Virus record (IMG/VR): IMGVR_UViG_3300035492_000044
Span: 46,179-110,178 of that record
Source: a virus
Taxonomy: Duplodnaviria > Heunggongvirae > Uroviricota > Caudoviricetes
Reading direction: 5' to 3' (one strand)
Length of the DNA stretch: 64,000 nt
The notes under the pieces are model-generated. The model ran no database searches. It saw only the letters and a list, made by a program, of their open reading frames with translations, and had not been told where the DNA came from. The position numbers and the translations under genes were made by a program. Numbering within the stretch: position 1 is the first letter of the stretch; the number at the start of each line of letters is the position of its first letter. This document shows positions 8,939 to 55,702 of the stretch, in pieces.

Positions 8939-9172
8939 AAAGTACAATCAGACCGACGTTTTAATCGCTCGAAACCCTGTTGGGGTGGAGGGCGGGTAGT
9001 AGGCCCAAGTGCTCTAGGATGCTCAGGCATCCTAGCCTACTTAATACACTACCACTATCAGGAGAGGAAAATAGAGGATATACATGAAGAGTGCACTTAT
9101 GAAAAATAGTACGACGTTCATGTACCTCGAAACCCTGTTAGGGTGGATTCCCCAATCACTAGGACCCAATAA

Positions 9173-10174
9173 ATGAACAATCTGGATTTACGTGCAGTAG
9201 TATTGCCAAAGGCAATCATCGAGAAATTCCTGAGCATCGAGAAAGAAGTACTCGAGTCTGGCAATCTGGCATGGTCAGTCTACGACAAGAACTGGTGGAA
9301 TGATGGTGGCATCTTCCGTATCCCAGTATCCAGCAATTGCACTGGTCAACTACTGGTAGCTATGTACCACATAGCTAAGCACGGTATCAAAGCTCTAGTC
9401 TACCCGAAGAATACCTTCGAGGGAATCAAGACTACTTATCGTATGCTTCATGCATTCGGTATTCAGACATACCAAGTGGATATGGGTCTCAATAACACCA
9501 ATATCCCATCTGCGGAAGATATCCGTGAACTCACTGGCCATTTTATCGATGACGTGCTTCTGGTAGCTACCAACATTGGTGGCATGAAGTTCGACTACGA
9601 TACCAGCGATTACCTCCATGTAATGCTGGATGGTGCACATGCCCAGTTCCTGGAATATGAAGAAGACGAGAACTACGACTCGGTAGTATACAGCTTCTTC
9701 GCTACTAAGTCTACTCCGGTGGGAGAAGGTGGTCTCATCGCTACTCGTGATGAAGAAATGGCTGACTGGCTCATCCAGACCCTTATGTACGACAAGCCTC
9801 ACTTCAAGGCTCTAGGTCTGAACTTCCGTGTATCTACGGCCACCGCTCTGAAGATGCGTTACCTCCTAACTAGTGGGGAGTCTACCAGTACTCTTCTCGA
9901 GCACAGAGTTGATATTTGGCAGATGTATGCCAAAGTATGTACTGAACTTGGAGTGAGCTTTGTCAATCCTCGTTCTGGTACCATGAACGGGTATAAGTTC
10001 ATGATTACCGATCCTCGGATCACTGACATGGAATGCCTGACTACCAGTAAGGCATTCGAACTGTACCACAACGTCTGCCCGGCTACTTATCCTCAACTGT
10101 CTGAGCAACTGCCAGAACTGGAAAGAGTATTCCGCAGTATCATCACCAAGAATCTGGAGAAAGCTTCAGCATGA
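9173..10174 (+). CDS. DegT/DnrJ/EryC1-like PLP sugar aminotransferase (short form)
   Basis: 'SFFATKSTPVGEGGLIATRDEEMADWL' resembles the DegT 'SFHxxKxxxxGEGG' lysine region. Preceded by two class-B motifs. Confidence 0.5.
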   Translation: MNNLDLRAVVLPKAIIEKFLSIEKEVLESGNLAWSVYDKNWWNDGGIFRIPVSSNCTGQLLVAMYHIAKHGIKALVYPKNTFEGIKTTYRMLHAFGIQTYQVDMGLNNTNIPSAEDIRELTGHFIDDVLLVATNIGGMKFDYDTSDYLHVMLDGAHAQFLEYEEDENYDSVVYSFFATKSTPVGEGGLIATRDEEMADWLIQTLMYDKPHFKALGLNFRVSTATALKMRYLLTSGESTSTLLEHRVDIWQMYAKVCTELGVSFVNPRSGTMNGYKFMITDPRITDMECLTTSKAFELYHNVCPATYPQLSEQLPELERVFRSIITKNLEKASA

Positions 10175-11307
10175 GTCACATGAACCTCAACCAACAAATC
10201 CCAGCTCGTCCTGTTCGTGAGTTCGACAAAGTAGTTGTCGTTACTGGTGGATCGGGATTCATCGGAGGTGCATGTGTCAAGCTCCTCAATGAAGATCCAT
10301 GCGTTTCTGAGATCCGAATCCTGGACGTAGCATTCCCTGACTACGAACTGACTTCGAAGATGCGCTACTTCCGAGTAGACGTCAACGATCTGGCAACTCT
10401 TCTGAAGTACTCTGTCGATGCTGACGAGTGGATCGACAACGTAGGTCTGCTCGGCACTGGTGATACTCATGAACTGGGTAGCTATCCTGCGACAGCTCTG
10501 GCGACTAACGTCAATGGCTTCCTCAATCAGCTGGAAGCTGCGTACCTCAACGGTGTACCTCGCTTCTTCCACCAGACCAAGAATCGCTTCGATACTACCA
10601 ATGGTACTGAAGGTGGTCTGTCTGAAAACTGGTATACTGCTACTAAGAGTATGGCGGAGATCGCTGCATTCTGGGCACGTAAGAGTCGTCATCAGCAGGT
10701 AACTGTAGTTCGTTACCTCAATGCATCCGGTCGTCGTCAGCATCTGGGTCCAGTTCGTAAGCTGTTCCCTCTGGCAGTAGTCAACGCTATTCTGGACATC
10801 GACTTCACTGTCTACGGTGATGGTCAGCAACTGGCCGACTTCATTCATGTGGAAGACCTGGCTTCTGCAGCTATGACCTTCATGCGTGCCGATAGCATGG
10901 ACAAGCCTGTCCGTATGCTGGATATCGGTACTGGTCAAGCTATCAGTATTCTTGATCTGGTCACCAAGATCAAGCAGAAGATTCCTAGCAGCAAGTCTGC
11001 TATCCAGTTCCTCCCTATGCGTAAGGGTGAGAAAGAGAATACTCGCATCGAAGCTGATCTTCGTGACATCGAGGAGGCTCGCAGCTATGGCTGGGAATGC
11101 AAGTTCTCTGAAGAAGATGTGATCAACGACTACATCCAGTACTACCTGTCTGGAGATGTGGACTACACTTACATCTACAATACCATGGTCTACTTCCAAG
11201 AGACCTACAGCCCATTCACTTCCAATGGTCAACCAATCAACATCCGTGATATGGGTGTCGAAGGTGTCCGTCAGAAGTTCATCGAGAAGATGCAGAACGA
11301 TGGCTAA
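10171..11307 (+). CDS. NAD-dependent sugar epimerase/dehydratase (extended SDR)
   Basis: 'VTGGSGFIGG' Rossmann motif and 'YTATKSMAE' YxxxK. Confidence 0.8.
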   Translation: MSHMNLNQQIPARPVREFDKVVVVTGGSGFIGGACVKLLNEDPCVSEIRILDVAFPDYELTSKMRYFRVDVNDLATLLKYSVDADEWIDNVGLLGTGDTHELGSYPATALATNVNGFLNQLEAAYLNGVPRFFHQTKNRFDTTNGTEGGLSENWYTATKSMAEIAAFWARKSRHQQVTVVRYLNASGRRQHLGPVRKLFPLAVVNAILDIDFTVYGDGQQLADFIHVEDLASAAMTFMRADSMDKPVRMLDIGTGQAISILDLVTKIKQKIPSSKSAIQFLPMRKGEKENTRIEADLRDIEEARSYGWECKFSEEDVINDYIQYYLSGDVDYTYIYNTMVYFQETYSPFTSNGQPINIRDMGVEGVRQKFIEKMQNDG

Positions 11308-12172
11308 ATACGACGTAGTGCTGACAGGTTCTGATGGCTACATTGGGACCTATGTCAAGAATGCTCTTTCCACTATGGGTCTGAGTGTTCTCTGTGTTGA
11401 CCTCAAGTCAGGTCTTCACATGGCTGACGTCATGGGTGTATCTGCTAAGTGGTTGATCCACTTAGCAGCACTTATTGATGTTCGAGAGAGCCATGACAAG
11501 AACCATGCTTACTTCGACAATAACTGTGGCGCCTACTACGATCTGGTGATGAAGAATGGTAACACATTCGAAAATATCATCTATGCTTCGAGTGCTGCAG
11601 TTTATGACGACCACGGGAACATCAATCCTCAGTCTGTCTACGGGATGACTAAGCTTAATGGGGAATACATCACTAAGATGGCTTCTCCTACTAATCACCT
11701 AGTTCTCCGGTTCGCTAACCCAGTTGGAGTCAGCCCGGTTAGTACTCCTAAGATGGGTGATGGTCTATTCTTCAAACTGGCTCAAGCAGCCGTTGATGAG
11801 AAGGTCTTCTCCATCCACAACTCCGAACATATGAAGCGGGACTTCTTCCCGGTAATCTGGATTCCTCTTCTGATCTCTGCGGTCATTAAGGATGAGAACT
11901 TCAGCATGTTCGGTACTCATGACCTATGTAGCGGAAAGCTGGTCACTGTTCGCAGTGTCGTTGAAGCTCTCTGCGATCTTCATGAGATCGGGTACAAACT
12001 GGTAGCACCTCCCATCGGAACTCTGGAGAATGTGGAAGAGCGTGATTGCCCTATCCTCAACCAGTACCTGGATATCGTTTATCGTGGGTATGATCCAGTT
12101 GCATTTGTTACTGAGCAGTTCCCCAACTATCTCAAGTTAGCAGCTAAGATCGCTATCAAGTCCAGCGTTTAA
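11300..12172 (+). CDS. NAD-dependent epimerase/reductase family (SDR)
   Basis: 'LTGSDGYIGTYV' and 'YGMTKLNGEY' YxxxK; ATG overlaps the upstream stop. Confidence 0.7.
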   Translation: MAKYDVVLTGSDGYIGTYVKNALSTMGLSVLCVDLKSGLHMADVMGVSAKWLIHLAALIDVRESHDKNHAYFDNNCGAYYDLVMKNGNTFENIIYASSAAVYDDHGNINPQSVYGMTKLNGEYITKMASPTNHLVLRFANPVGVSPVSTPKMGDGLFFKLAQAAVDEKVFSIHNSEHMKRDFFPVIWIPLLISAVIKDENFSMFGTHDLCSGKLVTVRSVVEALCDLHEIGYKLVAPPIGTLENVEERDCPILNQYLDIVYRGYDPVAFVTEQFPNYLKLAAKIAIKSSV

Positions 12173-23672: not shown

Positions 23673-23963
23673 ATGAGTAAAGCGAAAGAGGTGTTATCTC
23701 ACCTTAACGAGATAAACGAGGCTGCAGCTGTTGATATGCAGGGAGCAGCTAAGGCTATTAAGGCAGAGCTTGCCGGCAAGTATAACCGTGCAGTTCTATA
23801 CTCTGATCGAGATCAGCCAGGTGTGATCAATGTGGCTTTTAATATTGATATGGACGATGTTCCGGACTCTGTGGTTTATGGCCTAGAGAACATAGGGAAG
23901 AAGTTTAATGTTAAAGTGTGGTCAAGCCGAGCAATATACGGTGACAGCCTGGAGAGAATGTGA
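23673..23963 (+). CDS. paralog-family protein (N-terminal 'MSKAKEVLSHLNEI')
   Basis: Shares the N-terminal peptide with the four downstream paralogs; start chosen at the second ATG to match the family. Confidence 0.5.
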   Translation: MSKAKEVLSHLNEINEAAAVDMQGAAKAIKAELAGKYNRAVLYSDRDQPGVINVAFNIDMDDVPDSVVYGLENIGKKFNVKVWSSRAIYGDSLERM

Positions 23964-24862
23964 TGAGTAGGGCTAAATCTCTTATCGACTTATGTGAAGC
24001 AGTCGATAAATACGGGGTAGGTCAGGTGATTGATGTCGACTGGGATGGTCCCAGTAAGGCGCTAATTGCTAGTCGCGAAGGATCCGACAGCTACATACTG
24101 AAACGGGTTATCAATGGGAAGCCGTCTAATAAAGACGAAGACCATTGCGAAGTCAGTAAGGCTGAACTGGAAGATATGATGGAGTCCAAGACTGAATTCA
24201 ATCTAATCAAGTTCAACGACAGAAAGACTTACGACGCTGCCCTTCGTAAGTTCGATTCCCAGATCGAATTTGAGAATGAGGATCCGGACGAGCTTACTCT
24301 GAAGGTTCCATCGAGGGTATCCGATGCTATTGAAGACTACCTTAACGACAGTTCTCTGTACAAGGTGACCTTTAATATCCAAGAGGCAGTAGAAGATAAT
24401 GGATGCTACTGGGTTTGGACTAAGAGACTTAGTCACTTACAGAAATATGACTGGGTTATCGAGCGAGGCTATGAAACAGAGCAGGATGCCTATTCTGCCG
24501 CTAAGTCGATTATCCATAACGGTAAGAGGCCAGTGCTAGCGGCTATTGGCACTGAGACTATGCCTGGTTATCTGGTTAACTACGGGATGACTTTCAAAGA
24601 AGTCAAGAGTAAACCTCTAGCTAAAGCTGTTAATGAGGCCCTTGACCTTACTACTATGATGAAAGCGGGTAAGACTTATGCGGTCTACATGAATGATCCC
24701 CGTACTAATGAGTGGTCGTATCTTATGGGGTACTACGAAGCCAAACCTAATCAGGATCTCAAAGCATTCAAGAAGAGCATGCACCCAGACTGGGCGTACG
24801 TTTATGTGTTTGAAGAACCTGTCAGAGACAACAAGAAGGTAAAAGAGGTAGGTGAAAAATGA
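23960..24862 (+). CDS. paralog-family protein (N-terminal 'MSRAKSLIDLCEAV')
   Basis: Conserved N-terminal peptide; tandem array. Confidence 0.55.
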   Translation: MMSRAKSLIDLCEAVDKYGVGQVIDVDWDGPSKALIASREGSDSYILKRVINGKPSNKDEDHCEVSKAELEDMMESKTEFNLIKFNDRKTYDAALRKFDSQIEFENEDPDELTLKVPSRVSDAIEDYLNDSSLYKVTFNIQEAVEDNGCYWVWTKRLSHLQKYDWVIERGYETEQDAYSAAKSIIHNGKRPVLAAIGTETMPGYLVNYGMTFKEVKSKPLAKAVNEALDLTTMMKAGKTYAVYMNDPRTNEWSYLMGYYEAKPNQDLKAFKKSMHPDWAYVYVFEEPVRDNKKVKEVGEK

Positions 24863-25788
24863 ATAAGGCTAAGAAACTACTAAGCATATGTGAATCTATT
24901 CAGCAAGGAGATCGAGTTTTCCTGACTTCCGCTGGATGGTGGAAAAGCAGAGCCACTGCTATGACGGAAGAGTGGTCTCATGAGGACCGTCCAGGTCACG
25001 TCATTATTCTGAAGGACGATAGTTCAGATCCGTCTTACGTAGTAAATAGAAAGACAATTCACAATGGGCCTCTGGCTGGTAAGACCTTCCAGAATCTCAT
25101 TATGAAGGGGATTGAAGAATCGGGATCTCCGTACCAGGATCTGGTGGCTAAGTACATCAAAGAGAATGGTAAAGATGACAAGCCCGTCATCAATGCTCTT
25201 GAGAACTTCGCCAATATGTGCGATGATGGCGCAGATGAACAGGAAGCATTTGACGATGCTTTCCGTAAGTTCGCTCATGGTACCAAGGAGAATATCAAGC
25301 ATAAGCTGAAAGGCTTGGGTATTGATATTCAGGAGTCAAAGGACGAAGGATTCAAAGTTATTTGGACTGATCGTGACTATAAGGAGTTTAGCAAGAACTT
25401 TAGTAATAGCAAGTTAGGATCTCCAGATGAAGCTGAGAATAAAGCGCGTAGCTTCATGAAGAAACTGGAGAAGGATGAGAATATTCGCTCAGTGTCAATG
25501 AAGTCTATTAATGAGGCCCAAGCTGCTACGTGGGTAAAGACCACAGCTGACGGCAATCGTGCTCTCGAGTACTTTGATAAGTCAGGTAGCGGCGAGACTT
25601 ACGTTGTAGTTAAGGATCCTAAAGTATACAACAGATTCGAAGTGTATGCTATCGGATGGGAAGATGACTCTGTATCCTTCAAGGTAGATAATTACGACGC
25701 CTTCAAGAATACCTACGATAAGTCATTCGGCCATGGACCAGTTCCAGGAGAGAATGAGTATAATTATCTAGTAACAGGTAAGAAGTAG
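24859..25788 (+). CDS. paralog-family protein (N-terminal 'MNKAKKLLSICESI')
   Basis: Conserved N-terminal peptide; translationally coupled. Confidence 0.55.
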   Translation: MNKAKKLLSICESIQQGDRVFLTSAGWWKSRATAMTEEWSHEDRPGHVIILKDDSSDPSYVVNRKTIHNGPLAGKTFQNLIMKGIEESGSPYQDLVAKYIKENGKDDKPVINALENFANMCDDGADEQEAFDDAFRKFAHGTKENIKHKLKGLGIDIQESKDEGFKVIWTDRDYKEFSKNFSNSKLGSPDEAENKARSFMKKLEKDENIRSVSMKSINEAQAATWVKTTADGNRALEYFDKSGSGETYVVVKDPKVYNRFEVYAIGWEDDSVSFKVDNYDAFKNTYDKSFGHGPVPGENEYNYLVTGKK

Positions 25789-25789
25789 G

Positions 25790-26164
25790 ATGAATAGGTC
25801 TCAGAAACTAATATCTCTTTGTGAATCTATAAAACAAAAGAAGATTTCTGAAGAAGAGGCCAAGTCTAAAGGATGGTACTTACTCCCAGAACATAAGAAG
25901 TGGTTGGCAGACAATCTTTCAACTCTAGTTGAGGTTAATGTCGATGACTGTTATCAATGGGAATATAATCCACCTCTTGATGAAAACAACAAGACTGTGA
26001 TTAGTATAGTAGATGATATGAAACAGGGTTATCGTCTTCCTATTATCGAAATACGATATGACAGCTCTCGTAGAAAATACAAGATCTCTGACGGTCAGCA
26101 TAGATGGGTTGCATGGGGAAGTCTAGGTAATAAGACCATCCCAGCCTTGCTAACTAAAGAGTGA
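25790..26164 (+). CDS. paralog-family protein (N-terminal 'MNRSQKLISLCESI')
   Basis: Conserved N-terminal peptide. Confidence 0.55.
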   Translation: MNRSQKLISLCESIKQKKISEEEAKSKGWYLLPEHKKWLADNLSTLVEVNVDDCYQWEYNPPLDENNKTVISIVDDMKQGYRLPIIEIRYDSSRRKYKISDGQHRWVAWGSLGNKTIPALLTKE

Positions 26165-26286: not shown

Positions 26287-26571
26287 ATGTCCATTACTAT
26301 CAATGTCTTCAATGAGAATCGTGAGCTGGTATCTGATTATCCATTTCTGCGTATGTGGAAACAGTTCATTGATGCGTGGACTGGCAAGGACCTGTATATT
26401 GAGGAAGAAGGATGCTATCTCTGCGAGCTATCTCGTCTCGATGCTAAACACTTCTTCTCCTTCATTCTGAATGTAGGTACTAATGATAATGTCTGGGACA
26501 AGATGGATCTTCAGAAGCTCCTTCGTGACATCGAGTATTATAAAGACTGCACAGTGAGGATTGTTGGATGA
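26287..26571 (+). CDS. hypothetical protein
   Basis: ORF after class-B-like motif 26218. Confidence 0.4.
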   Translation: MSITINVFNENRELVSDYPFLRMWKQFIDAWTGKDLYIEEEGCYLCELSRLDAKHFFSFILNVGTNDNVWDKMDLQKLLRDIEYYKDCTVRIVG

Positions 26572-27101
26572 GTCATGTTCGGATCTACCACTACCACATA
26601 ACCGTGGAGTGTGATCGTGAAGAACTGATTAATTTCTCCAAACTATTAGGAGCTAAGGCAACTACTATCGATTTGCATCGAGATGCCAGGATGCAGATTG
26701 ACCGTATGCTAACCAAATACTCCACCGATCTGGCAGATATGAAGAGTATTACTGCCAGTCATTCAACCCAGATCCACGAATTAGGATATGAGGTAAAGAG
26801 AGCAAAGATCGAGGAAGTCCTTAGTACCTTCGTAGGTATTGACATAAAGGACTACTTGTATCTTGAGGCTCATATCAAAGTGGCTGATGACGGCCATCTC
26901 CCGGACGTAGATGGATTCTCAATGTCCACTAATCCATTCCAGGGAAATAGATTCTATAATGCTCGTATTTATACTGAGGAAGACCTCGTACGATACTGGC
27001 GGAATATTAAGTATCTACCTAACATAGTCAAGACTCAACTCGAAGGAGTAGTCTATGACTCAAACCAAGACCACGACAAGTGGTGGAGTAATCATGAATA
27101 A
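26568..27101 (+). CDS. hypothetical protein
   Basis: ORF, ATGA-coupled to the upstream gene. Confidence 0.4.
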   Translation: MSHVRIYHYHITVECDREELINFSKLLGAKATTIDLHRDARMQIDRMLTKYSTDLADMKSITASHSTQIHELGYEVKRAKIEEVLSTFVGIDIKDYLYLEAHIKVADDGHLPDVDGFSMSTNPFQGNRFYNARIYTEEDLVRYWRNIKYLPNIVKTQLEGVVYDSNQDHDKWWSNHE

Positions 27102-27588
27102 AGCACAGAAAGTTCTTAGTAAGCTTCGTAGCATTAATGAGGGCTATATCGCTATCTCATTTGATGCAGATACACGTCAGCGTCTGTCGGAGATCTGTGA
27201 TCTTATTGGCGAGACTTCTATCATGGAGGAAATCTCCTTCGTCGATAGTAACGAGTTCCATACGACCCTCATGTACTCTCCCACTACCCCGGTACTAGAC
27301 ATCATTCCGGAACTGGTAGGTAAGACTATCGTGGCACATAACCCACGATTCCAACTGTTCGGACCAGAAAATGATGTACTCGTAATTCAGTTCGAATCTC
27401 CCGAGCTGGATATTCTGAATCAGAAGTACAAGGATATGGGTGAGATTCCAAGTGAACTGAGTGCAGAGTACAAGCCTCACATTACTCTGGCTAAGGATGT
27501 AGTAGGCCTTGAAATGCCTACTCTTCCGGCACTACCTCTCAACATCCCATTGGTTATTACTGACCATTACGCTGAAGAAATCAAGTAG
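27094..27588 (+). CDS. 2H phosphoesterase (LigT/Acb1-like) carrying the paralog-family N-terminal peptide
   Basis: Two HxT/S motifs, 'FHTTLMYS' and 'PHITLAKD'; N-terminal 'MNKAQKVLSKLRSINEG'. Confidence 0.7.
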   Translation: MNKAQKVLSKLRSINEGYIAISFDADTRQRLSEICDLIGETSIMEEISFVDSNEFHTTLMYSPTTPVLDIIPELVGKTIVAHNPRFQLFGPENDVLVIQFESPELDILNQKYKDMGEIPSELSAEYKPHITLAKDVVGLEMPTLPALPLNIPLVITDHYAEEIK

Positions 27589-27593
27589 GTAAT

Positions 27594-28418
27594 ATGGCCA
27601 ATAAGGTTTATCGTGATGGCGAGCGAGACGGATACGGTCCTCGCCATACTAAGAACTTTAATCCCAATAACTACATCACTGTCTTTACTGATGCCTCCTA
27701 TTGTGATAGGACAGGTAAAGGAGGTATGGCTGCCTGGATCAAGGCAGCCGATGGAGTTACCCATAAACTGTACGAGAGCTTCCGAGCTAAGGACTCTGTA
27801 TCAGCAGAGAAGCAGGCTCTACAAACAGCGCTTGACTACATTATTCAGAACTTCCACACTGAGAACAAGACTCTTGTAATCAACTGTGACTGCATGCCTG
27901 TACTTGAGAGTCTGGATGTAGAGGAGATTGAAGAAGCTGGGATGTTCCTGAAGATTACTCTGAAACATGTCAAGGCTCACCGAGGTGTAAATGGACCTCG
28001 TTCATCAGTGAACACCTGGTGTGACAGCAGAGCTAAGGAGATCATGAGACTCTTCCGGGATCAGAATACGGAAGTAGGGTTTACTGTAGAAGTAGAAGAC
28101 TTCGCAGCCAGACATCGTGATAGTAAGAAGACAATAGAGGAACCATCTATGCAGGGTGAGTACAAGACATTCAACGAATGGAAGTCGTTGGGTAGAATAG
28201 TATGTAAGGGAGAACGCTCTCATAAGAGGAATGATGAGGGCAAGGCTGTATTTCATTATGACCAGACGGATAGTCTAGGTAAGAGTGAGGCTCCTCGTAA
28301 TGTCAATCACGTGAGAGGTTCCGGCATACCGGATCTTGAGAATTCTCGTGAGAATGAGAATCTGGTTAGTTCCTATACAATGTACGATGAGTACTGCAAG
28401 GAAGCTCCCTTCATGTAA
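27594..28418 (+). CDS. RNase H1-like ribonuclease with C-terminal extension
   Basis: 'VFTDASY' (D), 'AEKQAL' (E), 'INCDCM' (D), 'KAHRG..NTWCDSRAK' (H/D) catalytic pattern. Confidence 0.7.
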   Translation: MANKVYRDGERDGYGPRHTKNFNPNNYITVFTDASYCDRTGKGGMAAWIKAADGVTHKLYESFRAKDSVSAEKQALQTALDYIIQNFHTENKTLVINCDCMPVLESLDVEEIEEAGMFLKITLKHVKAHRGVNGPRSSVNTWCDSRAKEIMRLFRDQNTEVGFTVEVEDFAARHRDSKKTIEEPSMQGEYKTFNEWKSLGRIVCKGERSHKRNDEGKAVFHYDQTDSLGKSEAPRNVNHVRGSGIPDLENSRENENLVSSYTMYDEYCKEAPFM

Positions 28419-36059: not shown

Positions 36060-36144
36060 CCGGGTATGGTGAAATCGGTAGACACAAGAGCCTTAAACCC
36101 TCTGGACTATTGTCATGCCAGTTCGAGTCTGGCTACCCGGACCA
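36060..36144 (+). tRNA. tRNA-Leu (anticodon TAA), type II
   Basis: Acceptor CCGGGTA/TACCCGG, long variable arm, T-arm GCCAG-TTCGAGT-CTGGC, encoded CCA. Confidence 0.75.
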
Positions 36145-36359
36145 TATTTCTAAACGACGTTTTACTACGTCGAAACCCTGTTAGGGTGGAAGACGAGTGT
36201 ATTTGAGAAGGCTGGCCAGAATAGCTTCTGGTAGGGTGAACTCTCTGGAGACCGATGACGCCATGCTTCGGTAGCGCATGAAGATGATCCGTCAGTCCTT
36301 CTCCAATACAATCTAGACCGACGTCCAAATAAATCGAAACCCTGTTAGGTTGGAAGTGC

Positions 36360-36438
36360 GATTAAAAGGACCCTAGGCTAACCTCAGTAGGTCTCCCCCA
36401 GATGCTGAAGCTGGATGTCCTAGGATCCTTTTAATCTC
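36360..36438 (+). repeat. Long imperfect inverted repeat (~17 bp arms, ATTAAAAGGACCCTAGG / CCTAGGATCCTTTTAAT) forming an ~80 nt stem-loop
   Basis: Lies directly between class-B motif 36319 and tRNA-Arg. Confidence 0.5.
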
Positions 36439-36443
36439 ATTTC

Positions 36444-36520
36444 GCGTCCATAGCTCATCTGGATAGAGCAGGGGATTTCTAATCCCCTGGTGGTAGGTTC
36501 GAGTCCTACTGGACGCGCCA
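36444..36520 (+). tRNA. tRNA-Arg (anticodon TCT)
   Basis: Acceptor GCGTCCA/TGGACGC, anticodon loop TTTCTAA in stem GGGGA/TCCCC, GGTTCGAGTCC T-arm, CCA. Confidence 0.8.
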
Positions 36521-36969
36521 TATACCCGGCACTTACTGATGTCGTAGCTCGATAAACTCTAGTATCATTAGTTAGGATCGAAACCTCTACTAATGCTCTA
36601 TTAGATAAGGTTGGGTCAGTGGAGCAGTAGCCCTTACGTGGAGTGGGTATGTGTCAGAAGAGGCACTCCGCTCGATAACTGTCACGTGTGAATAATGAAT
36701 ACTATGCAGCTAGTTTTATTATTCTGGGTTTAGATGTCATGCTGCTACTCATGCATTATTTCTCCTGTTGGAGAGTGCAGGCGGAGAGGAGGCATCCTCG
36801 TAGAAGCCGAGTAGAGTCGACCACGGTCTAGCGGTGGAGGCAGTGCCCGTACTGTCATTTAGAATGATATCCTTCGGCTGTAAGGATGACGGGTAATAGA
36901 GCAAGCGGTGAGTACTAACTGCCTGCAGGACTTTGATGTGGTGTCAGAGTCCTGTGGAGTAAGTATTCT

Positions 36970-37046
36970 GCGGAATTAGCTCAGTTGGATAGAGCATCTG
37001 CCTTCCAAGCAGAGGGTCACGAGTTCGAGTCTCGTATTCCGCTCCA
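36970..37046 (+). tRNA. tRNA-Gly (anticodon TCC)
   Basis: Acceptor GCGGAAT/ATTCCGC, loop CTTCCAA, U73, CCA. Confidence 0.8.
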
Positions 37047-37050
37047 TTAT

Positions 37051-37127
37051 TGGGGTATAGCACAGTTGGTAGTTGCGTCTGACTGTTAATCAGAATGTCG
37101 TAGGTTCGAGCCCTACTACCCCAGCCA
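37051..37127 (+). tRNA. tRNA-Asn (anticodon GTT)
   Basis: Acceptor TGGGGTA/TACCCCA, loop CTGTTAA, GGTTCGAGCCC T-arm, CCA. Confidence 0.7.
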
Positions 37128-37371
37128 AATTTGGTGTTACTCCCGATCGAAAGATACTGAAACATGAAATCGTCTCCGCACGATGTAGGCCTTACGAGGT
37201 CATGATCAGCCAAGAGATGACAGGTCCGAGTAGATTAGTAGCACCGTCTTAATCACGCAGAGGCGGACTGCATCGAGAGCCATTAGAAAAGTGTAACTCC
37301 ACGAGAACCTCAGACTCTGGACTACATGACCGGCACTAGCTTCACTCGATCTAATAATTAAACGCAACCAT

Positions 37372-37456
37372 GCGGATGTGGTGAAATTGGTAGACACACC
37401 TGGTTTAGGTCCAGACGCCTACGGGCGTGAGAGTTCGAATCTCTCCATCCGCACCA
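37372..37456 (+). tRNA. tRNA-Leu (anticodon TAG), type II
   Basis: Acceptor GCGGATG/CATCCGC, long variable arm, loop TTTAGGT, CCA. Confidence 0.65.
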
Positions 37457-37711
37457 TATTCGAGACCCCACTAGTCAGCCGAAGTACTGGTGGAGATTAG
37501 TGTCATGAGCTAGTCTGCCCAGGTCTCGAATCAAAACAGGAGAGTCCTTAGATGGTGCTATCTAGCCAGTTGCATTCGTAGTCTACCCGTCGGCTACATT
37601 GAATGCCTAAGTGACTCTCCGCCTATTATGGGGTATGCCTCGTCTAAAGCATTGGGATCTGTGATGATACCAGGGTGGGTAACTACGTAGTCCCACATAC
37701 TCCACCAGTTT

Positions 37712-37787
37712 GCCGGTATAGCTCAGCTGGTAGAGCAGCTGACTTGTAATCAGCAGGTCGTGAGTTCGAATCCCACTGCCGGCACCA
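37712..37787 (+). tRNA. tRNA-Thr (anticodon TGT)
   Basis: Acceptor GCCGGTA/TGCCGGC, stem GCTGA/TCAGC with loop CTTGTAA, CCA. Confidence 0.8.
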
Positions 37788-37799
37788 TATTGTGGTTAC

Positions 37800-37916
37800 T
37801 GGTTCCTATCATTATGTGGTTGGAAGCAAAAAGTCTAGTAATCACAACCTAATTGCTGTAATCCCTCTTGAAGTGAAACATGATGGACGGGAGTTCGACT
37901 CTCCCCAGCTCCACCA
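37800..37916 (+). ncRNA. ssrA: tmRNA acceptor piece (3' half of a permuted ssrA): T-arm + 3' acceptor strand + CCA
   Basis: 'GGACGGGAGTTCGACTCTCCCCAGCTCCACCA' ends 37916 and closely matches the E. coli tmRNA 3' end '..GGGTTCAACTCCC.CCAGCTCCACCA'. No matching 5' acceptor strand upstream. Left boundary is approximate. Confidence 0.65.
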
Positions 37917-37986
37917 TAGTTACCCTGGTAGTGACAGCCTTTGAGTGCGGTCTTAATCTACCATGGCTATCAGAGTAACTATGATG

Positions 37987-38240
37987 GGGCTGATCTGGAT
38001 TCGACATTGTGCGTAGTGAATAGAGGCAGCACAGGTAGATGACTGCCTGAAGTTGAGCCACCTTGCGGAAGGTCTGGGCTCAGCTGAAATAGCATAAATC
38101 AAGTAACTGCCAACGATGAATCGTTCGCACCTCTGGCTCTGGTTGCTTAAGTAACCTGATGCTGGTCGGGTATCTTCGGATCGCTCTCCTGCTATAGCTA
38201 ATACCTATAGTTGCCTCGGAACAGAAAGAGAGCACCTATT
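37987..38240 (+). ncRNA. ssrA: tmRNA coding piece (5' acceptor strand GGGGCTGATCTGGATTCGAC..., tag ORF ANDESFAPLALVA-stop)
   Basis: 'GGGGCTGATCTGGATTCGAC' at 37987 matches the tmRNA 5' end 'GGGGCUGAUUCUGGAUUCGAC'. Tag frame 'GCC AAC GAT GAA TCG TTC GCA CCT CTG GCT CTG GTT GCT TAA' at 38109-38150. Lies downstream of the CCA end, so the gene is circularly permuted. 3' boundary approximate. Confidence 0.7.
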
Positions 38241-38257
38241 TCATTAGTGAGGACTAA

Positions 38258-38467
38258 ATGGAACATCACATCCTTAATCTCACTGCCCAGAAGGGTCGCC
38301 TGTATTACTACCAGGGTAATTTCTACCATCCGCTTGATCTGGTAGGTAACTCGGTAGGTCTAGTGAAGAGAGGAATTCGAGAGTTCCTCGCTAAGAATAA
38401 AGATATGGTAGCTCGTGACAGAGCTAGCCCAGACTACAAGACTCTGGTTGAATTATCAGGTCTTTAA
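38258..38467 (+). CDS. hypothetical small protein
   Basis: ORF within the tRNA island. Confidence 0.3.
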   Translation: MEHHILNLTAQKGRLYYYQGNFYHPLDLVGNSVGLVKRGIREFLAKNKDMVARDRASPDYKTLVELSGL

Positions 38468-38570
38468 CTAATCCTGTCGTTGGGACTACCCAGTAGCCAT
38501 GAACTTCTGGGCGTCAGTAGAAGATACTGGACCAGTACGAAACCTGGTAATAATTAATTAGGAGAGCAGC

Positions 38571-38774
38571 ATGATGCTATCTGAGTTGGGTCAACGTATC
38601 TTGGCCCACTATGTTGAAAGACGTAGCGGTAAGTCGGGTAACTACATCCCTACTGACTGTGATCGTAAAGCAGCTCAACTAGCTGCTGAGAATACCACGG
38701 ATCATCTACGTGGAGCTACTGTTATGGCTCGGATGTATGATGACAAGCTTGCTGGTAAGGCTCCTATTAAGTAG
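38571..38774 (+). CDS. hypothetical small protein
   Basis: ORF with RBS 'ggagag'. Confidence 0.3.
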   Translation: MMLSELGQRILAHYVERRSGKSGNYIPTDCDRKAAQLAAENTTDHLRGATVMARMYDDKLAGKAPIK

Positions 38775-38917
38775 GAGCCGACTCGTACTTTCTGATGAGT
38801 AGCCCGAGTATAAAAGGCACGAAACTGTAATAGTCAAAGAGCCACTGATGGTGGCCAGTTAGTAACTCACACTGTAGCTAACTGAATTACGTTTGCAGAG
38901 GACCGTCAATCTGAAGC

Positions 38918-39625
38918 ATGAAGTGTACGCCTATGGTACTGACACTACCTTGGAAGTTGTACTGTGCTGGCGCTATACCAGCACTTAATACAGTGCAGCC
39001 TACAATCTATTCTTGCCTCGAACTGGATGAGTCCACAGAGGATGCGCACTTGAGTAGATTGTGGGAAGTACTGGAGATAATCATGACCAGAGAAGATTTA
39101 ATAAATCTATCCAAGATACCTCCTTCAAATATATCAGTAGCAAAGTCTCTTGAAGCTAGAGGTTATCCATATTATGGTAACCTAAAATCTTCATATCCGA
39201 TTCATTGGGCCAGCTTCTCTGCTATGCACGGAAGAGTTAGAGATTTTGGCCTTGATTGTGATTTTCCTAGAAATGTGGATGGATTTATTGATTTTATCCT
39301 TTATGTCGGACCTGTTCCTGGAGATATGATTAGGCCAACTCTTGGTAGATCAGATCATTCAATTGGGTACTTAAAGGGTAATTTTAAGTGGCAGGAGTCC
39401 AGTGATAATACATCGGAGTCTGCTACAAGAAACAAGACTGTAGTCAAGATTCAAGAGTGTCGTTTAAATAGGTTGGAAGACCTAGTAAGTAGTCTAGGGG
39501 ATAAAGTTGAAATAGACTCCTTATTTACGACCTCTCACTTTAGATATAAGAAGGATTTGTACAGGCTACTTAGAAGTAGGGGATATAAAATATCTTCTGA
39601 CTATAAAGTAGCTAGTAAAGTTTAA
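38918..39625 (+). CDS. HNH homing endonuclease (paralog 1)
   Basis: 'LGRSDHSIGYLKGNFKWQ' resembles the HNH 'RIDNxxGYxxxNxRW' motif; AT-rich codon usage differs from the neighbours; embedded between tRNAs. Confidence 0.5.
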   Translation: MKCTPMVLTLPWKLYCAGAIPALNTVQPTIYSCLELDESTEDAHLSRLWEVLEIIMTREDLINLSKIPPSNISVAKSLEARGYPYYGNLKSSYPIHWASFSAMHGRVRDFGLDCDFPRNVDGFIDFILYVGPVPGDMIRPTLGRSDHSIGYLKGNFKWQESSDNTSESATRNKTVVKIQECRLNRLEDLVSSLGDKVEIDSLFTTSHFRYKKDLYRLLRSRGYKISSDYKVASKV

Positions 39626-39626
39626 T

Positions 39627-39716
39627 GGAGAGTTGGCCGAGTGGTTTAAGGCACCTGACTTGAAATCAGACGGATCAGCAATGGTCCCCAGGGTTCGAAT
39701 CCCTGGCTCTCCACCA
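39627..39716 (+). tRNA. tRNA-Ser (anticodon TGA), type II
   Basis: Acceptor GGAGAG../..CTCTCC, long variable arm, loop CTTGAAA, GGTTCGAATCC T-arm, CCA. Confidence 0.7.
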
Positions 39717-40045
39717 TATTGACCTAAGAAGATTACACTCATCATGGGTGGGATTAGCCTCTTATCTTCTTGGTCAATATTCTCTGTTACTCACAAGTAC
39801 CTTAACTAACAACTGCACAGACGTTAGCCAACCAGATGTGAGTAATCGAGGTTCCACTCTCATTCCGAGAGTGTTGATAAGGGGGTGATCCTTATCTCCG
39901 GCTGCAGCTACGGATACTGCAGAAAGGCTAGTTAATGTCGTGAGACATCGACAGGCCTACCGTTGTACCAGAGGCGAATAGGGTAGCTCCCGTTCCAGCA
40001 CTGCTTTGCTGGATAGCCTCTTCTTATACCTAAGCAGAGGTTAGT

Positions 40046-40585
40046 ATGAACATACCTGAAATAAAATATGATACCGAGTACCTAATAAAAATAGCTTTCC
40101 ATAATTTTGATTTATGGAGCCATCACGAGCAAATGGCCGTTAAGTCTATGGAAGCTAGAGGTATTCCATGTTATGGTTTATTACCTAAAATGTTTCCGAT
40201 TCATCGGAACCGTTTTAGAAATATGCATAATAGAATAGACGAACAGTGTTTAGAGACTTCGTTTAAAAGAGATTTAGAAGGTTTTGCTAAATTTGTGGAA
40301 TATCTTGGACCAGTTCCTACTGAAATGAAAGTCCCGTCTTTAGGAAGAATCGATCATTCTAAAGGTTATGTAATAGGCAACTTTACATGGCAGGAACTTA
40401 GAGATAATATAGAAGAAATGGCCAATAGAACCAAGTCTTCAGATAATAAGTTCTGGGTAAACAGCCCAGGATGCACAGGTTATAGATGGTATAACGACGG
40501 ACAGACTGAATTCTTTCTGAGAGAAAATAATCCTTTAATTGAAGACGCTGGTCTAGTTAGAGGTCGGTTTTCTAATCGACGTTAA
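40046..40585 (+). CDS. HNH homing endonuclease (paralog 2)
   Basis: 'SLGRIDHSKGYVIGNFTWQ' HNH motif; clear paralogy to 38918-39625 ('EARGIPCYG', 'LGPVPTEMKVPSLGR'). Confidence 0.55.
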   Translation: MNIPEIKYDTEYLIKIAFHNFDLWSHHEQMAVKSMEARGIPCYGLLPKMFPIHRNRFRNMHNRIDEQCLETSFKRDLEGFAKFVEYLGPVPTEMKVPSLGRIDHSKGYVIGNFTWQELRDNIEEMANRTKSSDNKFWVNSPGCTGYRWYNDGQTEFFLRENNPLIEDAGLVRGRFSNRR

Positions 40586-40638
40586 TCCATCAGAAGCCAC
40601 TAATGCTGTGGAAAACTCTGCAAAAATTTAGGTGACTT

Positions 40639-40932
40639 ATGAATAAGGTAGTTAGATTCCTTAATGCCATTCGTAGGTCACACCCAGATATGGTCGAGTT
40701 GTATACTCAGGGCCAATGCTACAACTTCCATCTTATCCTCCGAGAGGTCTTCCCAGATGCTGTTGCCTGGTATGACCCAGTTGAGGGCCATGTGTACTCC
40801 AAGATTGGAGACTGCTGGTACGATATAAGAGGAAGACATTTCAAACTGGATCCACGAGCTAGTATTCTGGATCATCGTATGTCCGACAAACCTCATCGCT
40901 GGGGTGGACGTGATAGAAGAAGACTAAGGTGA
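40639..40932 (+). CDS. hypothetical protein
   Basis: ORF. Confidence 0.4.
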   Translation: MNKVVRFLNAIRRSHPDMVELYTQGQCYNFHLILREVFPDAVAWYDPVEGHVYSKIGDCWYDIRGRHFKLDPRASILDHRMSDKPHRWGGRDRRRLR

Positions 40933-40935
40933 GTT

Positions 40936-41502
40936 ATGGCTCGTAAATCATTCAAGGACATGACCCAGTTTCAAGTAGGCCAGCACTTCTGTGAATGTGA
41001 TCTAGGCCAGGTACTCGAGTTCGCTATCACTACCGAACCTGTAGTTAAGGACGTGGATGGTCGACGCCAGATTACCTGGACAGGTCGTGACGTGAAGACT
41101 CAGCGGGATATTGAGTATCTCGTTACTGAGGGCTTCGAACATTATGGCCCTAAGATCTACGACCCAGCTGACATGTTCAGCCCAGAGGATGTAGCTCTTG
41201 CTCTCCGACAGTTGCGCCAGTCTCCTAATGTCCTTCAGAAGGTCGAGGTAGATCCTGGTGCACCTGGTGGTGATGAGACGGTAGTTAGCTGTATAGTTCC
41301 TATTAATGGAAAAGATCATCACCTAGTCCTACCGGTTACATTGCATTATCGTGGTATCTGCAGACTGGCTGGATATAATGACGACAGACTGTACACCATT
41401 ACCTACGTCTCTCAGCAAGGTAGTGGTATAGTCGGGCCTAATGACTCTCTCCAGATTACAGCTGGTACAAAGATAAATGTGGCATTGACCAACAATGCAT
41501 AA
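40936..41502 (+). CDS. hypothetical protein
   Basis: ORF. Confidence 0.4.
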   Translation: MARKSFKDMTQFQVGQHFCECDLGQVLEFAITTEPVVKDVDGRRQITWTGRDVKTQRDIEYLVTEGFEHYGPKIYDPADMFSPEDVALALRQLRQSPNVLQKVEVDPGAPGGDETVVSCIVPINGKDHHLVLPVTLHYRGICRLAGYNDDRLYTITYVSQQGSGIVGPNDSLQITAGTKINVALTNNA

Positions 41503-41546
41503 CGACTTCCAGATAGTCCGAAACCCTGTTAGGGTGGAAGTCGGAA

Positions 41547-41888
41547 ATGGAGAGAGTTATGCTTGGTAAACCCATGAAGTCGATTAAGGTTCAATATGAG
41601 CCTGGCTGGAATGGTGGAACTTGGTCTGTAGTCAGTCGGAAGATTGATGCAGTATCTAAAGTCCACGATCTTCCTATGGATGTCAAGGTCAAGATACGGG
41701 GTATCCTAATCGACGCCTGTAAATCTACTCGAAAGGGTACTGACTATGACATGGGCCATCAGTACGACTGGGAATCCTGGGACCTGACTCTTAAGGTCAA
41801 GACTGAACTGGGTGTAATGGAGTTCAGTTTCTATGAGTATGCCCAGAAGCATCCTCGAGTCAAGACCTGGGAGATCTTCTACGAATAA
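41547..41888 (+). CDS. hypothetical protein
   Basis: ORF after class-B motif 41503. Confidence 0.4.
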   Translation: MERVMLGKPMKSIKVQYEPGWNGGTWSVVSRKIDAVSKVHDLPMDVKVKIRGILIDACKSTRKGTDYDMGHQYDWESWDLTLKVKTELGVMEFSFYEYAQKHPRVKTWEIFYE

Positions 41889-41966
41889 GGGCCTCTAGCA
41901 TAACTGGTAAATGCGTCCGGCTCATAACCGGAGGACAGATCGGTTCGAATCCGACGGGGCCCACCA
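41889..41966 (+). tRNA. tRNA-Met/Ile2 (anticodon CAT)
   Basis: Acceptor GGGCCTC/GGGGCCC, stem TCCGG/CCGGA with loop CTCATAA, GGTTCGAATCC T-arm, CCA. G1-C72 pair means it is not an initiator. Confidence 0.75.
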
Positions 41967-51756: not shown

Positions 51757-52275
51757 ATGAAACAGTCTAAGTTGATGTCTCTTATCGAGACTATCGTCAA
51801 TACCATCATCGGATTTCTCCTGTCACTGTTCGTAGTATGGCCTTTAGTGAGTATTGTCCTAGGTCTCGAGCATAGTGCTAAGGAGGACTTCCTCATCGTT
51901 ACTCTGTTCACTGTCGTAAGTATCATCCGGGGGTATGTAATCCGTAGATGGTTCGAGACTAAGATCCATGGACTATCTGCCTGGATCACTGAGTTCTTCG
52001 ATACTGAACCAGAGAACTCACCTACTCGGATAGTGAAGAAGTACGTACTATTCCCTGGATGGATACGTAGCCGTAGCGATAATCAACGGCACTACATCAG
52101 TTATGTCAAGCTAGCTAATCTGTATGGAGTCGACCTTAAGGAGTGCATAGTCATGCCTGATGTTGACAGTCCTCAGTACCACACTGAACTACAGAGACTG
52201 GCTGATATGAGAGAGTTGATCATGCTCCATCCTCAGTACGACGGTAACTACACTATCTCGGAGGTTCTCGCATGA
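51757..52275 (+). CDS. membrane protein (2 TM)
   Basis: 'IVNTIIGFLLSLFVVWPLVSIVLGL' and 'FLIVTLFTVVSIIRGYVI'. Confidence 0.45.
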   Translation: MKQSKLMSLIETIVNTIIGFLLSLFVVWPLVSIVLGLEHSAKEDFLIVTLFTVVSIIRGYVIRRWFETKIHGLSAWITEFFDTEPENSPTRIVKKYVLFPGWIRSRSDNQRHYISYVKLANLYGVDLKECIVMPDVDSPQYHTELQRLADMRELIMLHPQYDGNYTISEVLA

Positions 52276-55500: not shown

Positions 55501-55702
55501 AGGCACTCAAGAGGCAGTTGATCTTCTTCTGGACAAGATGAATAAGCATAGTCCATGGGTAGTTGACAGTACCGAGATCGTTAAGACTAAGGAACTGTAC
55601 ACTAGCTGGGATGAGATGTTCACTACCAAGTCAGCTTACAAGAGCTACTGGGGTGTTACTCAGACCAAGATCGTTGCACATATTCAACTGAAGAATAAGT
55701 GA
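52526..55702 (+). CDS. Family A DNA polymerase with 3'-5' exonuclease and an N-terminal UDG-like domain
   Basis: Motif A 'HADFSQAELVIL', motif B 'RRGAKAVSFGIIYGKS', motif C 'THDALDSE', Exo I 'GVDFETNG'. N-terminal 'VVGIGLGQSEGAFSTDAGDMMRAIF ... VIHHPRF' loosely resembles family-4 UDG motifs. Confidence 0.9.
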   Translation: MKLITEPSKSKYAVVGIGLGQSEGAFSTDAGDMMRAIFLSQTVFPHYVELRKDNFDDEEIPDELKSAVYSYLADNGIEKVILLGSQTARQLAPSLTAKSTIAKLNSMPFLGVQEFTAQAAVIHHPRFVVHALKNNPDSEIEYSNRIQGLLKHTPQAYNIHINSISIDGLISDILPWLLNNYRGKIGVDFETNGEEIWHKDFKITLFSLSMKDDDGSHITWWIPVTGNETEWELEQLRSFFLGTKDRLWAFNCPFEMKVFWRWLGVFIGINDSMVLITMESSRSSLKDAVRRHLASDFWEAEVHEQLNAFSATFKQMTKMIKGQPELIETLRNGGYPAMEEIQHNESLQFIRENHEDILEDYGIEELARCITGYPYHWAAVPHEILGPYCCRDSAYGVILAEKFEDKFRDGYPVYIRHPWLATVFESYGITYDRDVSYEEQNKFTQEMIASLNLIIQDLDIPIESKMKANDILSWNLPHTIVSYTEKTKKEKRRVIKDEGDRHEELKGIFNPASNHSTTRDMFWNHYLDESIEMATILWAFVTELRNRDIWPEVLKNLSTFSTEEEFLRSKPADEMMDSLIGLMQQHQGKIFGIDIQNCLVEATNNYKELYTGRFARDVMEAQYKVHTYFFGVNVDDKSTWNPKFELLFNLHKWKKLAKTVSTYITGSIGRDSVYLSKYDPKDITKPPIRIAKADLLPLDYQLKEDECWVFNVGFNSLSAITHRWSSGAHTIPSGSSVRRMLIPRNPDGVWFHADFSQAELVILSFFSQDPKMLQVFLSGGDMHRYVASQVFKKPEDEVTSEERRGAKAVSFGIIYGKSIESTAVEIFGGDVGRTQAMFDAFFLQFPGIKVWMEERYKEVDTHGKVTNMFGALIQVETDAPGNAKYRQGCNYPIQSSSSMLAGTSMWNLHEHCQTIDLTQLSHNFTHDALDSECEVRRIFDYTKALRFKMQDELYEQLGAPMRIDHEVGINCFHICGIGDIEETPDGIKFELEGTQEAVDLLLDKMNKHSPWVVDSTEIVKTKELYTSWDEMFTTKSAYKSYWGVTQTKIVAHIQLKNK

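Follow-up and report, generated by a model that had tools for sequence, protein, structure and literature searches.

Acb1 nucleases counter CBASS, the antiphage signaling systems built on cyclic oligonucleotides, by metal-independent acid-base cleavage 3' of adenosine via a cyclic phosphate intermediate (PMC9117128). Characterized examples come from T4 (gp57B), Erwinia phage FBB1 (7T26/7T27) and Burkholderia phage BCSR5 (9Q2G/9Q2Y). The internal proteins of T4 carry N-terminal propeptides of 10–19 residues, which direct them into the prohead core before being removed (PMC9026906); on IPI, IPII and IPIII this capsid-targeting sequence (CTS) is MKTYQEFIAE (PMC8442874). T4 acb1 adjoins ipI, which encodes an anti-restriction protein that bears the CTS and is injected (PMC9117128), and anti-CBASS activity that is in the particle from DNA entry has been described for Gp15 of T7/ICP3-like phages (bioRxiv 10.1101/2025.07.23.666291). 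Acb1, CTS-directed packaging of an anti-defense protein (T4 IPI*) and a virion anti-CBASS protein (T7/ICP3 Gp15) are already known, while full-text searches of the literature returned no report of a tagged, capsid-targeted or packaged Acb1, nor of the tag family described here in RP13-like phages. We analyzed a gene at 27094–27588 of a 64,000-nucleotide stretch of tailed-phage DNA (Caudoviricetes; positions 46,179 to 110,178 of IMG/VR record IMGVR_UViG_3300035492_000044), hereafter the window. Its product is a predicted Acb1-family enzyme that begins with a short tag shared with four unrelated window proteins. From sequence and by analogy with T4, we regard as evenly poised the reading that this is an Acb1-family enzyme with a capsid-targeting propeptide, pre-loaded in the particle and injected with the DNA. 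The gene and the parts of its product are listed below, with a slash marking a predicted cleavage site here and throughout.

27094–27588, + strand: Acb1-family 2H phosphodiesterase precursor gene, 164 amino acids, coordinates including the stop codon (open reading frame (ORF) read from the sequence; Pfam, PHROG and fold matches).
27094–27141, + strand: N-terminal tag MNKAQKVLSKLRSINE, residues 1–16, a putative capsid-targeting propeptide with predicted site I14-N15-E16/G17 (shared peptide, outside the Pfam match).
27142–27585, + strand: predicted mature enzyme, G17–K164, 148 amino acids, 16.6 kDa, isoelectric point (pI) 4.3 (alignments; computed size and pI).
27259–27267, + strand: first catalytic HxT, H56-T57-T58, equivalent to H44/T46 of Acb1 (read from sequence; PMC9117128).
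27478–27486, + strand: second catalytic HxT, H129-I130-T131, equivalent to H113/T115 of Acb1 (read from sequence; PMC9117128).

The ORF starts with the ATG at 27094 and stops with the TAG at 27586–27588. This ATG has a GGAG Shine-Dalgarno sequence on its 5' side and shares bases with the upstream gene's stop codon (overlap ATGAATAA), and the equivalent Met is the start in the closest cultured homologues, those of Escherichia phages IME392 and EP_H11. Because all three features fit 27094, the longer reading frame that opens at 27055 is probably not the gene.

On sequence and predicted structure, the protein is a member of the Acb1 branch of the 2H superfamily, not of LigT/ThpR. Residues 18–163 matched positions 4–137 of the 144 in the Pfam Acb1 profile (PF23474) with 47.1 bits (cutoff 27; E = 2.6e-12), and the PHROG match was phrog_755. 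Scores for Pfam 2_5_RNA_ligase2 (13.5 bits, cutoff 27) and for the NCBIfam ThpR equivalog TIGR02258 (22.2 bits, cutoff 65.7) were well below threshold; ThpR and LigT share the 2H fold and the HxT/HxT chemistry but are larger proteins whose substrate cleft is different. Exhaustive HMMER searching of 1.84 billion cluster representatives yielded 124 relatives, and a family profile built from 95 of them matched the FBB1 Acb1 structure (7t26) at E = 5.6e-31 and the BCSR5 Acb1 structure at 8.8e-22. With the AlphaFold model (predicted local distance difference test (pLDDT) 94.8, predicted template modeling score (pTM) 0.86) as query, the five best Foldseek matches were all Acb1 entries (7t26, 9q2y, 7t27, 9q2g; E ~1e-7 to 1e-6, TM-score 0.57–0.72), with LigT next. 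An initial annotation, made from the sequence alone, had noted the two HxT motifs, which we confirm, and proposed a 2H enzyme, either Acb1-like or a 2',5'-RNA phosphodiesterase, of which our results favor the former. It had also linked the fold to anti-Pycsar nucleases, which is incorrect, as Acb1 is an anti-CBASS protein and the anti-Pycsar protein Apyc1 has an unrelated metallo-beta-lactamase fold (PMC9117128).

The likeness to characterized Acb1 extends from the Pfam family and the compact 2H fold to the HxT/HxT tetrad and three further conserved residues (PMC9117128), at 18–28% identity to the solved Acb1 structures. H56 and T58 were invariant in every alignment, including that of the 95 family sequences, in which H129 was kept in at least 90%; in the smaller alignments H129 was also invariant. 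Aligned with FBB1 Acb1 and two T4-type 57B proteins, Y18 (in G-x-Y), H56, T58, F89 (in L-F-G), H129 and E161 were invariant. Among the equivalents of the base-stacking and adenine-contact residues Y12, W74, F107 and E141, Y18 (the Y12 equivalent), F89 and E161 are kept and Ser123 stands at an aromatic position, the mapping of published residues being approximate. The Acb1 fold begins exactly at the predicted mature start, where G-Y-I-A-I (G17-Y18) aligns with G-L-Y-V-A of FBB1 Acb1 (crystal construct S-G-L-Y); the predicted mature N-terminal peptide from G17 is GYIAISFDADTR. Given these matches, Acb1-family phosphodiesterase activity is highly probable. The best-supported prediction for the chemistry, made by homology, is that the metal-independent HxT/HxT center would cut the 3'-5' bonds of cyclic di- or trinucleotide immune signals through a 2',3'-cyclic phosphate intermediate. 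Among metagenomic proteins, the very long P0010 (2628 amino acids) and P0030 (1433 amino acids) matched the Acb1-like query in 11 and 5 separate stretches and may thus be tandem arrays of 2H domains.

The 16-residue extension in front of this domain is absent from T4-type 57B proteins (Aes012, Ac42) and from the FBB1 Acb1 crystal construct and is kept in the closest Acb1 homologues. It lies outside the Pfam match, which begins at residue 18, and AlphaFold modeled it as a helix (residues 3–11) and a linker, with pLDDT ~78 as opposed to 98 for the domain, off the fold and away from the active site. The same tag begins four other ORFs of the window, each supported by the tag pattern and profile described below.

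23673–23963, + strand: tagged ORF, 96 amino acids, MSKAKEVLSHLNEINE/AAAV; cargo without a Pfam, PHROG or NCBIfam match.
23963–24862, + strand: tagged ORF, 299 amino acids, MSRAKSLIDLCE/AVD; second, internal site A-V-N-E/A at residues 223–226.
24859–25788, + strand: tagged ORF, 309 amino acids, MNKAKKLLSICE/SIQ; second, internal site S-I-N-E/A at residues 217–220.
25790–26164, + strand: tagged ORF, 124 amino acids, MNRSQKLISLCE/SIK; weak ParB/Srx-like cargo containing DGQHR.

Over the first 12–16 residues the tags follow the consensus M-[NS]-[KR]-[AS]-x-x-[LV]-[LI]...[LI]-[CN]-E. The pattern M.[KR][AS][KQ].[LVI][LIV] had five matches in the six-frame translation of the window, all of them ORF starts (23673, 23963, 24859, 25790 and 27094). 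Scored against 1,511 candidate starts, a tag profile gave these five 19.8–23.5 bits and the best unrelated site 9.1 bits, the sole intermediate score (14.1 bits) belonging to an alternative upstream start of one of the five. Significant pairwise similarity of the five proteins ended after residues 16–21, except for a marginal 23% match between the two 300-residue proteins. The initial annotation had described the peptide as shared with neighboring paralogs: the sharing holds for all five ORF starts, but the proteins are not paralogs, since their cargoes are unrelated beyond the tag. At the DNA level the tags vary synonymously (mean column identity 58%), so that conservation is at the level of amino acids. 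Homologues of the other four cargoes were found neither in EP_H11 nor in the Vibrio phage discussed below nor in 80 metagenomic loci. The cargo of the ORF at 25790–26164 scored E = 0.0037 with Pfam ParB_N (below cutoff), 3.6e-5 with phrog_1033 and 23 bits with TIGR00180 (below cutoff), none of its family scores reaching threshold. It would be a candidate effector, injected and able to bind nucleotides or DNA.

Each of the five tags closes with [LI]-[CN]-E, and the next residue is Ser, Ala or Gly. Across the window's ORFs (18,634 residues) the motif [LIV][CN]E[SAG] occurred nine times; seven of these occurrences belonged to tagged proteins, where five close the tag and the other two lie about three-quarters along the 300-residue proteins, which suggests that the latter are cut twice. 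A weakly tag-like start, MKQSKLMSLIE/T (6.7 bits), also opens a 172-residue predicted membrane protein at 51757–52275 and is followed by hydrophobic segments; this likeness is probably coincidental. We considered two other roles for the tag and rejected both. A ClpX degron like those at the N-termini of lambda O or Dps would require T or a hydrophobic residue at position 2 and, behind the basic residue, a hydrophobic one, both of which the tag lacks. As a phage-nucleus import signal it would call for a chimallin-type gene, and none was present among the proteins scanned; we know of no N-terminal phage-nucleus import signal of such a kind.

Endings of this or a similar type recur on head proteins of related phages. 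The S77 proteases encoded by T4, phiKZ and SPN3US cleave behind the Glu of a short motif (PMC9026906). In the clade of the window phage, the relatives' capsid protein matched Pfam Gp23 (PF07068; 24.6 bits, cutoff 24.4), and the gene adjoining the capsid gene encodes a protease-scaffold fusion that matched phrog_207. Pfam Peptidase_S77, the family of T4 gp21, was matched with 31.7 bits (cutoff 27) in the metagenomic locus L041 and with 16.6 bits, below cutoff, by the EP_H11 protein. In EP_H11 the Acb1 tag ends in S-I-D-E/G, a small protein encoded between portal and protease in A-V-D-E/S and the N-terminus of the capsid protein in N-V-D-E/A, and the scaffold has four [IV]-D-E/S sites. Genome-wide, five of the eight non-scaffold occurrences of [IV]DE[SAG] in EP_H11 fell at residues 11–16 of a protein, where ~0.3 would be expected by chance. 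Two further small EP_H11 proteins with [IV]-D-E/A at residues 11–16, MYNAFNGPHPEALPVIDE/AN at 58060 (+ strand; L004:8060) and MVTAEEVLSSVDE/AT at 88816 (− strand; L004:38816), may also be processed head proteins. Phage YerA41 has tags ending in K-F-E/[AS], a capsid protein with K-K-Y-E/S, a scaffold with K-[FYL]-E/S and a protease with K-[ML]-E/S. In Vibrio phage 150E35-1, tags ending in I-C-E/[AS] open four ORFs that directly follow the capsid gene, and the tag of the Acb1 homologue ends in D-I-C-E/R; the phage's capsid protein has I-N-E/S and its scaffold one V-C-E/A. The tags (I-C-E) and the capsid protein (I-N-E) of this phage thus have no one common ending, though both endings are found among the window's tags, where I-C-E is the commonest. 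Most of ~97 capsid-protein homologues begin M..K..L.[EQ]-I-N-E/[AS], with the same ending as the tag of the window's Acb1 protein.

Virion proteomics and gene order in relatives point the same way. In YerA41 the equivalent tag, as read from the record (for example MSRISDLNKKFE/A), begins six genes (locus tags 211c, 210c, 209c, 208c, 206c and 205c), which we matched by order and protein length to g003–g006, g008 and g009 of the original study. All six were reported there as late-expressed and were detected in purified particles by liquid chromatography–tandem mass spectrometry (LC-MS/MS; Table S2, PMC7354516). They lie just upstream of a putative portal gene and the capsid gene. The tagged Acb1 gene of Vibrio phage 150E35-1 lies within a structural module, with PAAR/VgrG-like genes on one side and baseplate wedge genes on the other. 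We also observed that this homologue (L090, 25225–26071) is directly 3' of the PAAR spike-tip gene, a layout like that of type VI secretion PAAR-effector pairs. Three metagenomic loci (L041, L078 and L060) contained arrays of up to ~10 tagged ORFs beside protease and capsid genes, with diverse cargo that included HAD-like, HExxH-containing and SWIM-finger proteins. Our literature search found no proteomics for EP_H11, IME392 or RP13.

Two further observations concern other Acb1-family proteins. The portal protein of cyanophage Pam3 (PDB 8hds chain A) has at residues 481–619 a C-terminal Acb1-like domain with both HxT motifs (profile E = 2.2e-18); when the paper on the Pam3 structure was searched by term, neither a phosphodiesterase nor a domain like RNA ligase was mentioned. 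Among the 124 Acb1-family representatives, 16 had N-termini resembling the T4 CTS (MK[TS]F.[EQ]F[LI].E), as did a few others whose starts are probably mis-called, compared with 3 of 1,762 background ORFs from a different clade. By this pattern, some 15% of Acb1-family representatives have N-termini resembling the T4 CTS.

Taken together, the unrelated cargoes, the hydrophobic-x-Glu end, the capsid- or scaffold-like endings, the presence of tagged proteins in YerA41 virions and the location of the Vibrio gene beside baseplate genes suggest that the tag behaves as a virion-targeting, protease-cleaved propeptide, a role that we consider probable. The proposal in the initial annotation that the peptide serves packaging and injection thereby gains support from homology and genomic context. 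In the mechanism we propose, the tag would recruit the precursor to the scaffolding core during prohead assembly, and the prohead protease would cut after Glu16 (I-N-E/G) and so remove it. The mature 16.6-kDa Acb1 would stay in the head and be ejected with the DNA, and cyclic-oligonucleotide signals would be degraded before any phage gene is expressed. For the window's own protein we infer cleavage at E16, packaging, ejection and the substrates by analogy.

The parallel with the T4 CTS lies in a short N-terminal propeptide on unrelated proteins with a hydrophobic-x-Glu end (PMC9026906, PMC8442874), in the S77-like protease and Gp23-like capsid of the window phage's clade, and in cargo that includes an anti-defense function, here a predicted one. 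The T4 internal proteins are themselves fast-evolving, in which they can be likened to the window's tagged set. The predicted cargo here is an enzyme that degrades second messengers, whereas that of T4 is a restriction-enzyme inhibitor, and for the window's clade targeting and cleavage are predicted from sequence comparison. Gp15 shares the concept of anti-CBASS activity in the particle, but it is an essential ejectosome protein that binds the CBASS effector and leaves cGAMP levels unchanged, as opposed to a dedicated nuclease with a removable tag, as predicted here. In the Pam3 portal (PDB 8HDS) an Acb1-family domain is likewise built into a virion head component, there by covalent fusion and here by a putatively cleavable tag.

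Several observations weigh against this reading. In the enzyme, Ser123 takes the place of an aromatic residue of FBB1, six positions ahead of the second catalytic His, and the C-terminal lid Trp (W147) is absent, the protein ending ...H-Y-A-E-E-I-K, three residues past E-E. With no lid Trp and one base-stacking aromatic fewer, its substrates may differ from those of T4 and FBB1 Acb1. The lid aromatic is also absent from the closest relatives (P0003–P0005) and from the T4-type 57B of Aes012, so that not every Acb1 protein possesses the lid. The tag (MNKAxxLLxxL.E type) is dissimilar in sequence to the T4 CTS and longer (12–16 residues), and its helical amphipathicity was not significantly above that of shuffled controls. 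The predicted mature cargoes are mostly acidic (pI 4.3–5.4; 7.8 for the ParB/Srx-like one), unlike the basic internal proteins of T4. The tagged genes of the window sit among replication and nucleotide-metabolism genes on the same strand, whereas those of YerA41 are late. YerA41 is moreover distant (capsid protein 26% identical), its tag differs in detail, and its virion proteome is broad, with 63 of 201 proteins including many replication enzymes; because that proteome is permissive, virion presence in YerA41 is weaker evidence than it might seem. In phage G, the virion proteome did not include the Acb1 homologue (PMC12484599). Finally, the head genes are not in the 64-kb window, and searches with the EP_H11 capsid protein and a 41-sequence capsid profile and a metagenome scan did not recover the phage's own capsid, scaffold or protease, so that the comparison of tag and capsid endings is lacking for the window phage itself.

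Four other explanations account for parts of these data. The protein could be an Acb1 enzyme whose tag is not a packaging signal but a protease-removable pro-peptide or decoy that times its activity, or a helix for partner binding or oligomerization, with the enzyme acting only in the cell that produces it. Such gating would be well timed, since in at least some systems CBASS signaling is triggered late by the phage's own prohead protease, whose cleavage activates the CBASS CD-NTases (PMC12991175); the early/middle-type gene neighborhood and the acidic cargo, unlike T4 internal proteins, also fit. Yet the same tag on five unrelated cargoes, and on dozens in relatives, looks like a generic address and not like inhibition specific to one enzyme. 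The tag also lies away from the active site in the model, tagged proteins occur in YerA41 virions and the tagged Vibrio Acb1 gene is inside a baseplate module. We therefore judge this explanation unlikely, although it is the strongest of the four. Almost as strong, and also unlikely, is the possibility that the enzyme is a ThpR/LigT-like 2',3'-cyclic phosphodiesterase that heals RNA ends, or a 2'-5' phosphodiesterase, serving to counter host tRNA or RNA nucleases. ThpR/LigT proteins share the 2H fold and HxT motifs, the phage carries a tRNA cluster, the missing lid Trp and base-stacking aromatic set the protein apart from characterized Acb1, and JGI (Joint Genome Institute) and several GenBank records name the family 'RNA ligase'. 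These names are older than the discovery of Acb1, however, and the scores fall far below the ThpR/LigT thresholds and well above that of Acb1. Profile and fold searches put Acb1 structures first, and no RNA ligase or polynucleotide kinase partner was among the seven neighboring genes scanned.

Delivery in the virion could alternatively run through the tail tip or baseplate, in the manner of PAAR/VgrG effectors, with the tag loading the protein onto the tail or spike. The position of the Vibrio phage 150E35-1 homologue, directly downstream of PAAR and near VgrG-like and baseplate wedge genes, speaks for this route. The other tagged ORFs of the same phage directly follow its capsid gene, though, one tagged EP_H11 protein is encoded between portal and protease, the tagged YerA41 genes are just upstream of the putative portal and capsid genes, and the tag closes in a way similar or identical to the capsid and scaffold sites, which are typical of an S77 head protease, all of which makes a tail-tip route improbable. 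Least probable of all is that the shared N-terminus has no function as protein and is a by-product of cassette shuffling or of a constraint on translation initiation (5' recombination linkers, A-rich early codons). The tagged genes are indeed clustered and tightly packed, their first codons are A-rich (ATG AAT AAA ...), and hyperplastic loci of T4-type phages shuffle via conserved flanks. This explanation is at odds with amino-acid conservation in the face of synonymous change and a mean DNA column identity of only 58%, with the persistence of the hydrophobic pattern and terminal Glu across phages whose proteins are 25–45% identical, and with the way the ending tracks that of each phage's capsid or scaffold in EP_H11 and YerA41. 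A virion-targeting role for the tag explains the modular cargo, the head-protein endings and the virion proteomics better than each of these alternatives.

Immediately upstream of the Acb1 gene is a gene without the tag.

26568–27101, + strand: untagged gene, 177 amino acids, phrog_22504, translationally coupled to the Acb1 gene via ATGAATAA.

Its product had homologues in 187 phage records, among them those of Rheinheimera Barba phages and of Phapecoctavirus. As it contains 'YHITV' and 'AHIKV', we considered it as a second 2H enzyme and rejected this (hhalign probability against the Acb1 profile, 1.4%); a single-sequence AlphaFold model was unusable (pLDDT 36). Directly 3' of the Acb1 gene, 27594–28418 encodes an RNase H-like protein (Pfam RNase_H, 32.9 bits; phrog_24889) with an extra C-terminal region and weak ArdC-N similarity. 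An RNase H gene also adjoins the Acb1 homologue in EP_H11, in reversed order.

The window is part of a large phage genome that encodes a split multisubunit RNA polymerase beta' subunit, a family A DNA polymerase, ribonucleotide reductase and topoisomerase II, along with eight tRNA genes and a gene like that for transfer-messenger RNA (tmRNA). Its proteins are 24–45% identical, with partial synteny, to those of EP_H11 and IME392, which belong to the 'RP13-like' myovirus clade with hypermodified thymidine (PMC12686479). The tRNA cluster at 36060–41966 (Leu x2, Arg, Gly, Asn, Thr, Ser and Met), a stretch for which the ORF map gave merely spurious small ORFs, includes a predicted permuted tmRNA at 37824–38241 with tag peptide ANDESFAPLALVA. 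Gene calls on a Logan contig placed three + strand genes at ~9170–12170 (L007:14725–17724), for a DegT-type aminotransferase, an epimerase/dehydratase and an RmlD-like reductase; in a clade with hypermodified thymidine (PMC12686479), they may serve sugar decoration of DNA. The family A DNA polymerase (52526–55702, 1058 amino acids) has a long N-terminal region, with the Pfam polymerase match beginning only at residue 733, and related polymerases of the clade have been reported with an N-terminal domain like uracil-DNA glycosylase (UDG) (PMC12686479; bioRxiv 10.1101/2025.03.26.645540). Products identical to two window proteins were encoded on contigs of 9.4 kb and 19 kb (L006 and L007; Logan, run SRR11791770), which come from the same phage and reach just 0.6 kb and 5.5 kb past the window. 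Beyond these, megablast found nothing in the phage collection that matched the region, a word-indexed protein search with the Acb1 protein returned itself alone, an exact-product look-up of that protein found nothing, and an IMG/VR scan for relatives found none.

Acb1 is presently seen as an enzyme made after infection, and a packaged Acb1 would change this timing. The nuclease would arrive with the genome, at a dose set by the previous host and independent of new gene expression, which would bear on how phages escape signaling defenses and on defenses that sense the loss of cyclic nucleotides, such as Panoptes. The tag would provide a simple sequence rule for predicting injected effectors among the unknown proteins of a large and little-studied clade of phages with hypermodified DNA, and is a candidate handle with which foreign proteins might be brought into capsids other than that of T4. 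More tentatively, and with somewhat less confidence than in the case of the single gene, we propose that RP13/YerA41/EP_H11-like myoviruses may use an undescribed family of capsid-targeting propeptides to load a fast-changing enzyme arsenal (Acb1, ParB/Srx-like, HAD-like and HExxH-like) for co-injection, in which Acb1 would pre-destroy CBASS or type III CRISPR signals. Together with the CTS-like N-termini of other Acb1 proteins and the Pam3 portal fusion, this suggests that virion delivery of signal-degrading nucleases may be widespread and overlooked.

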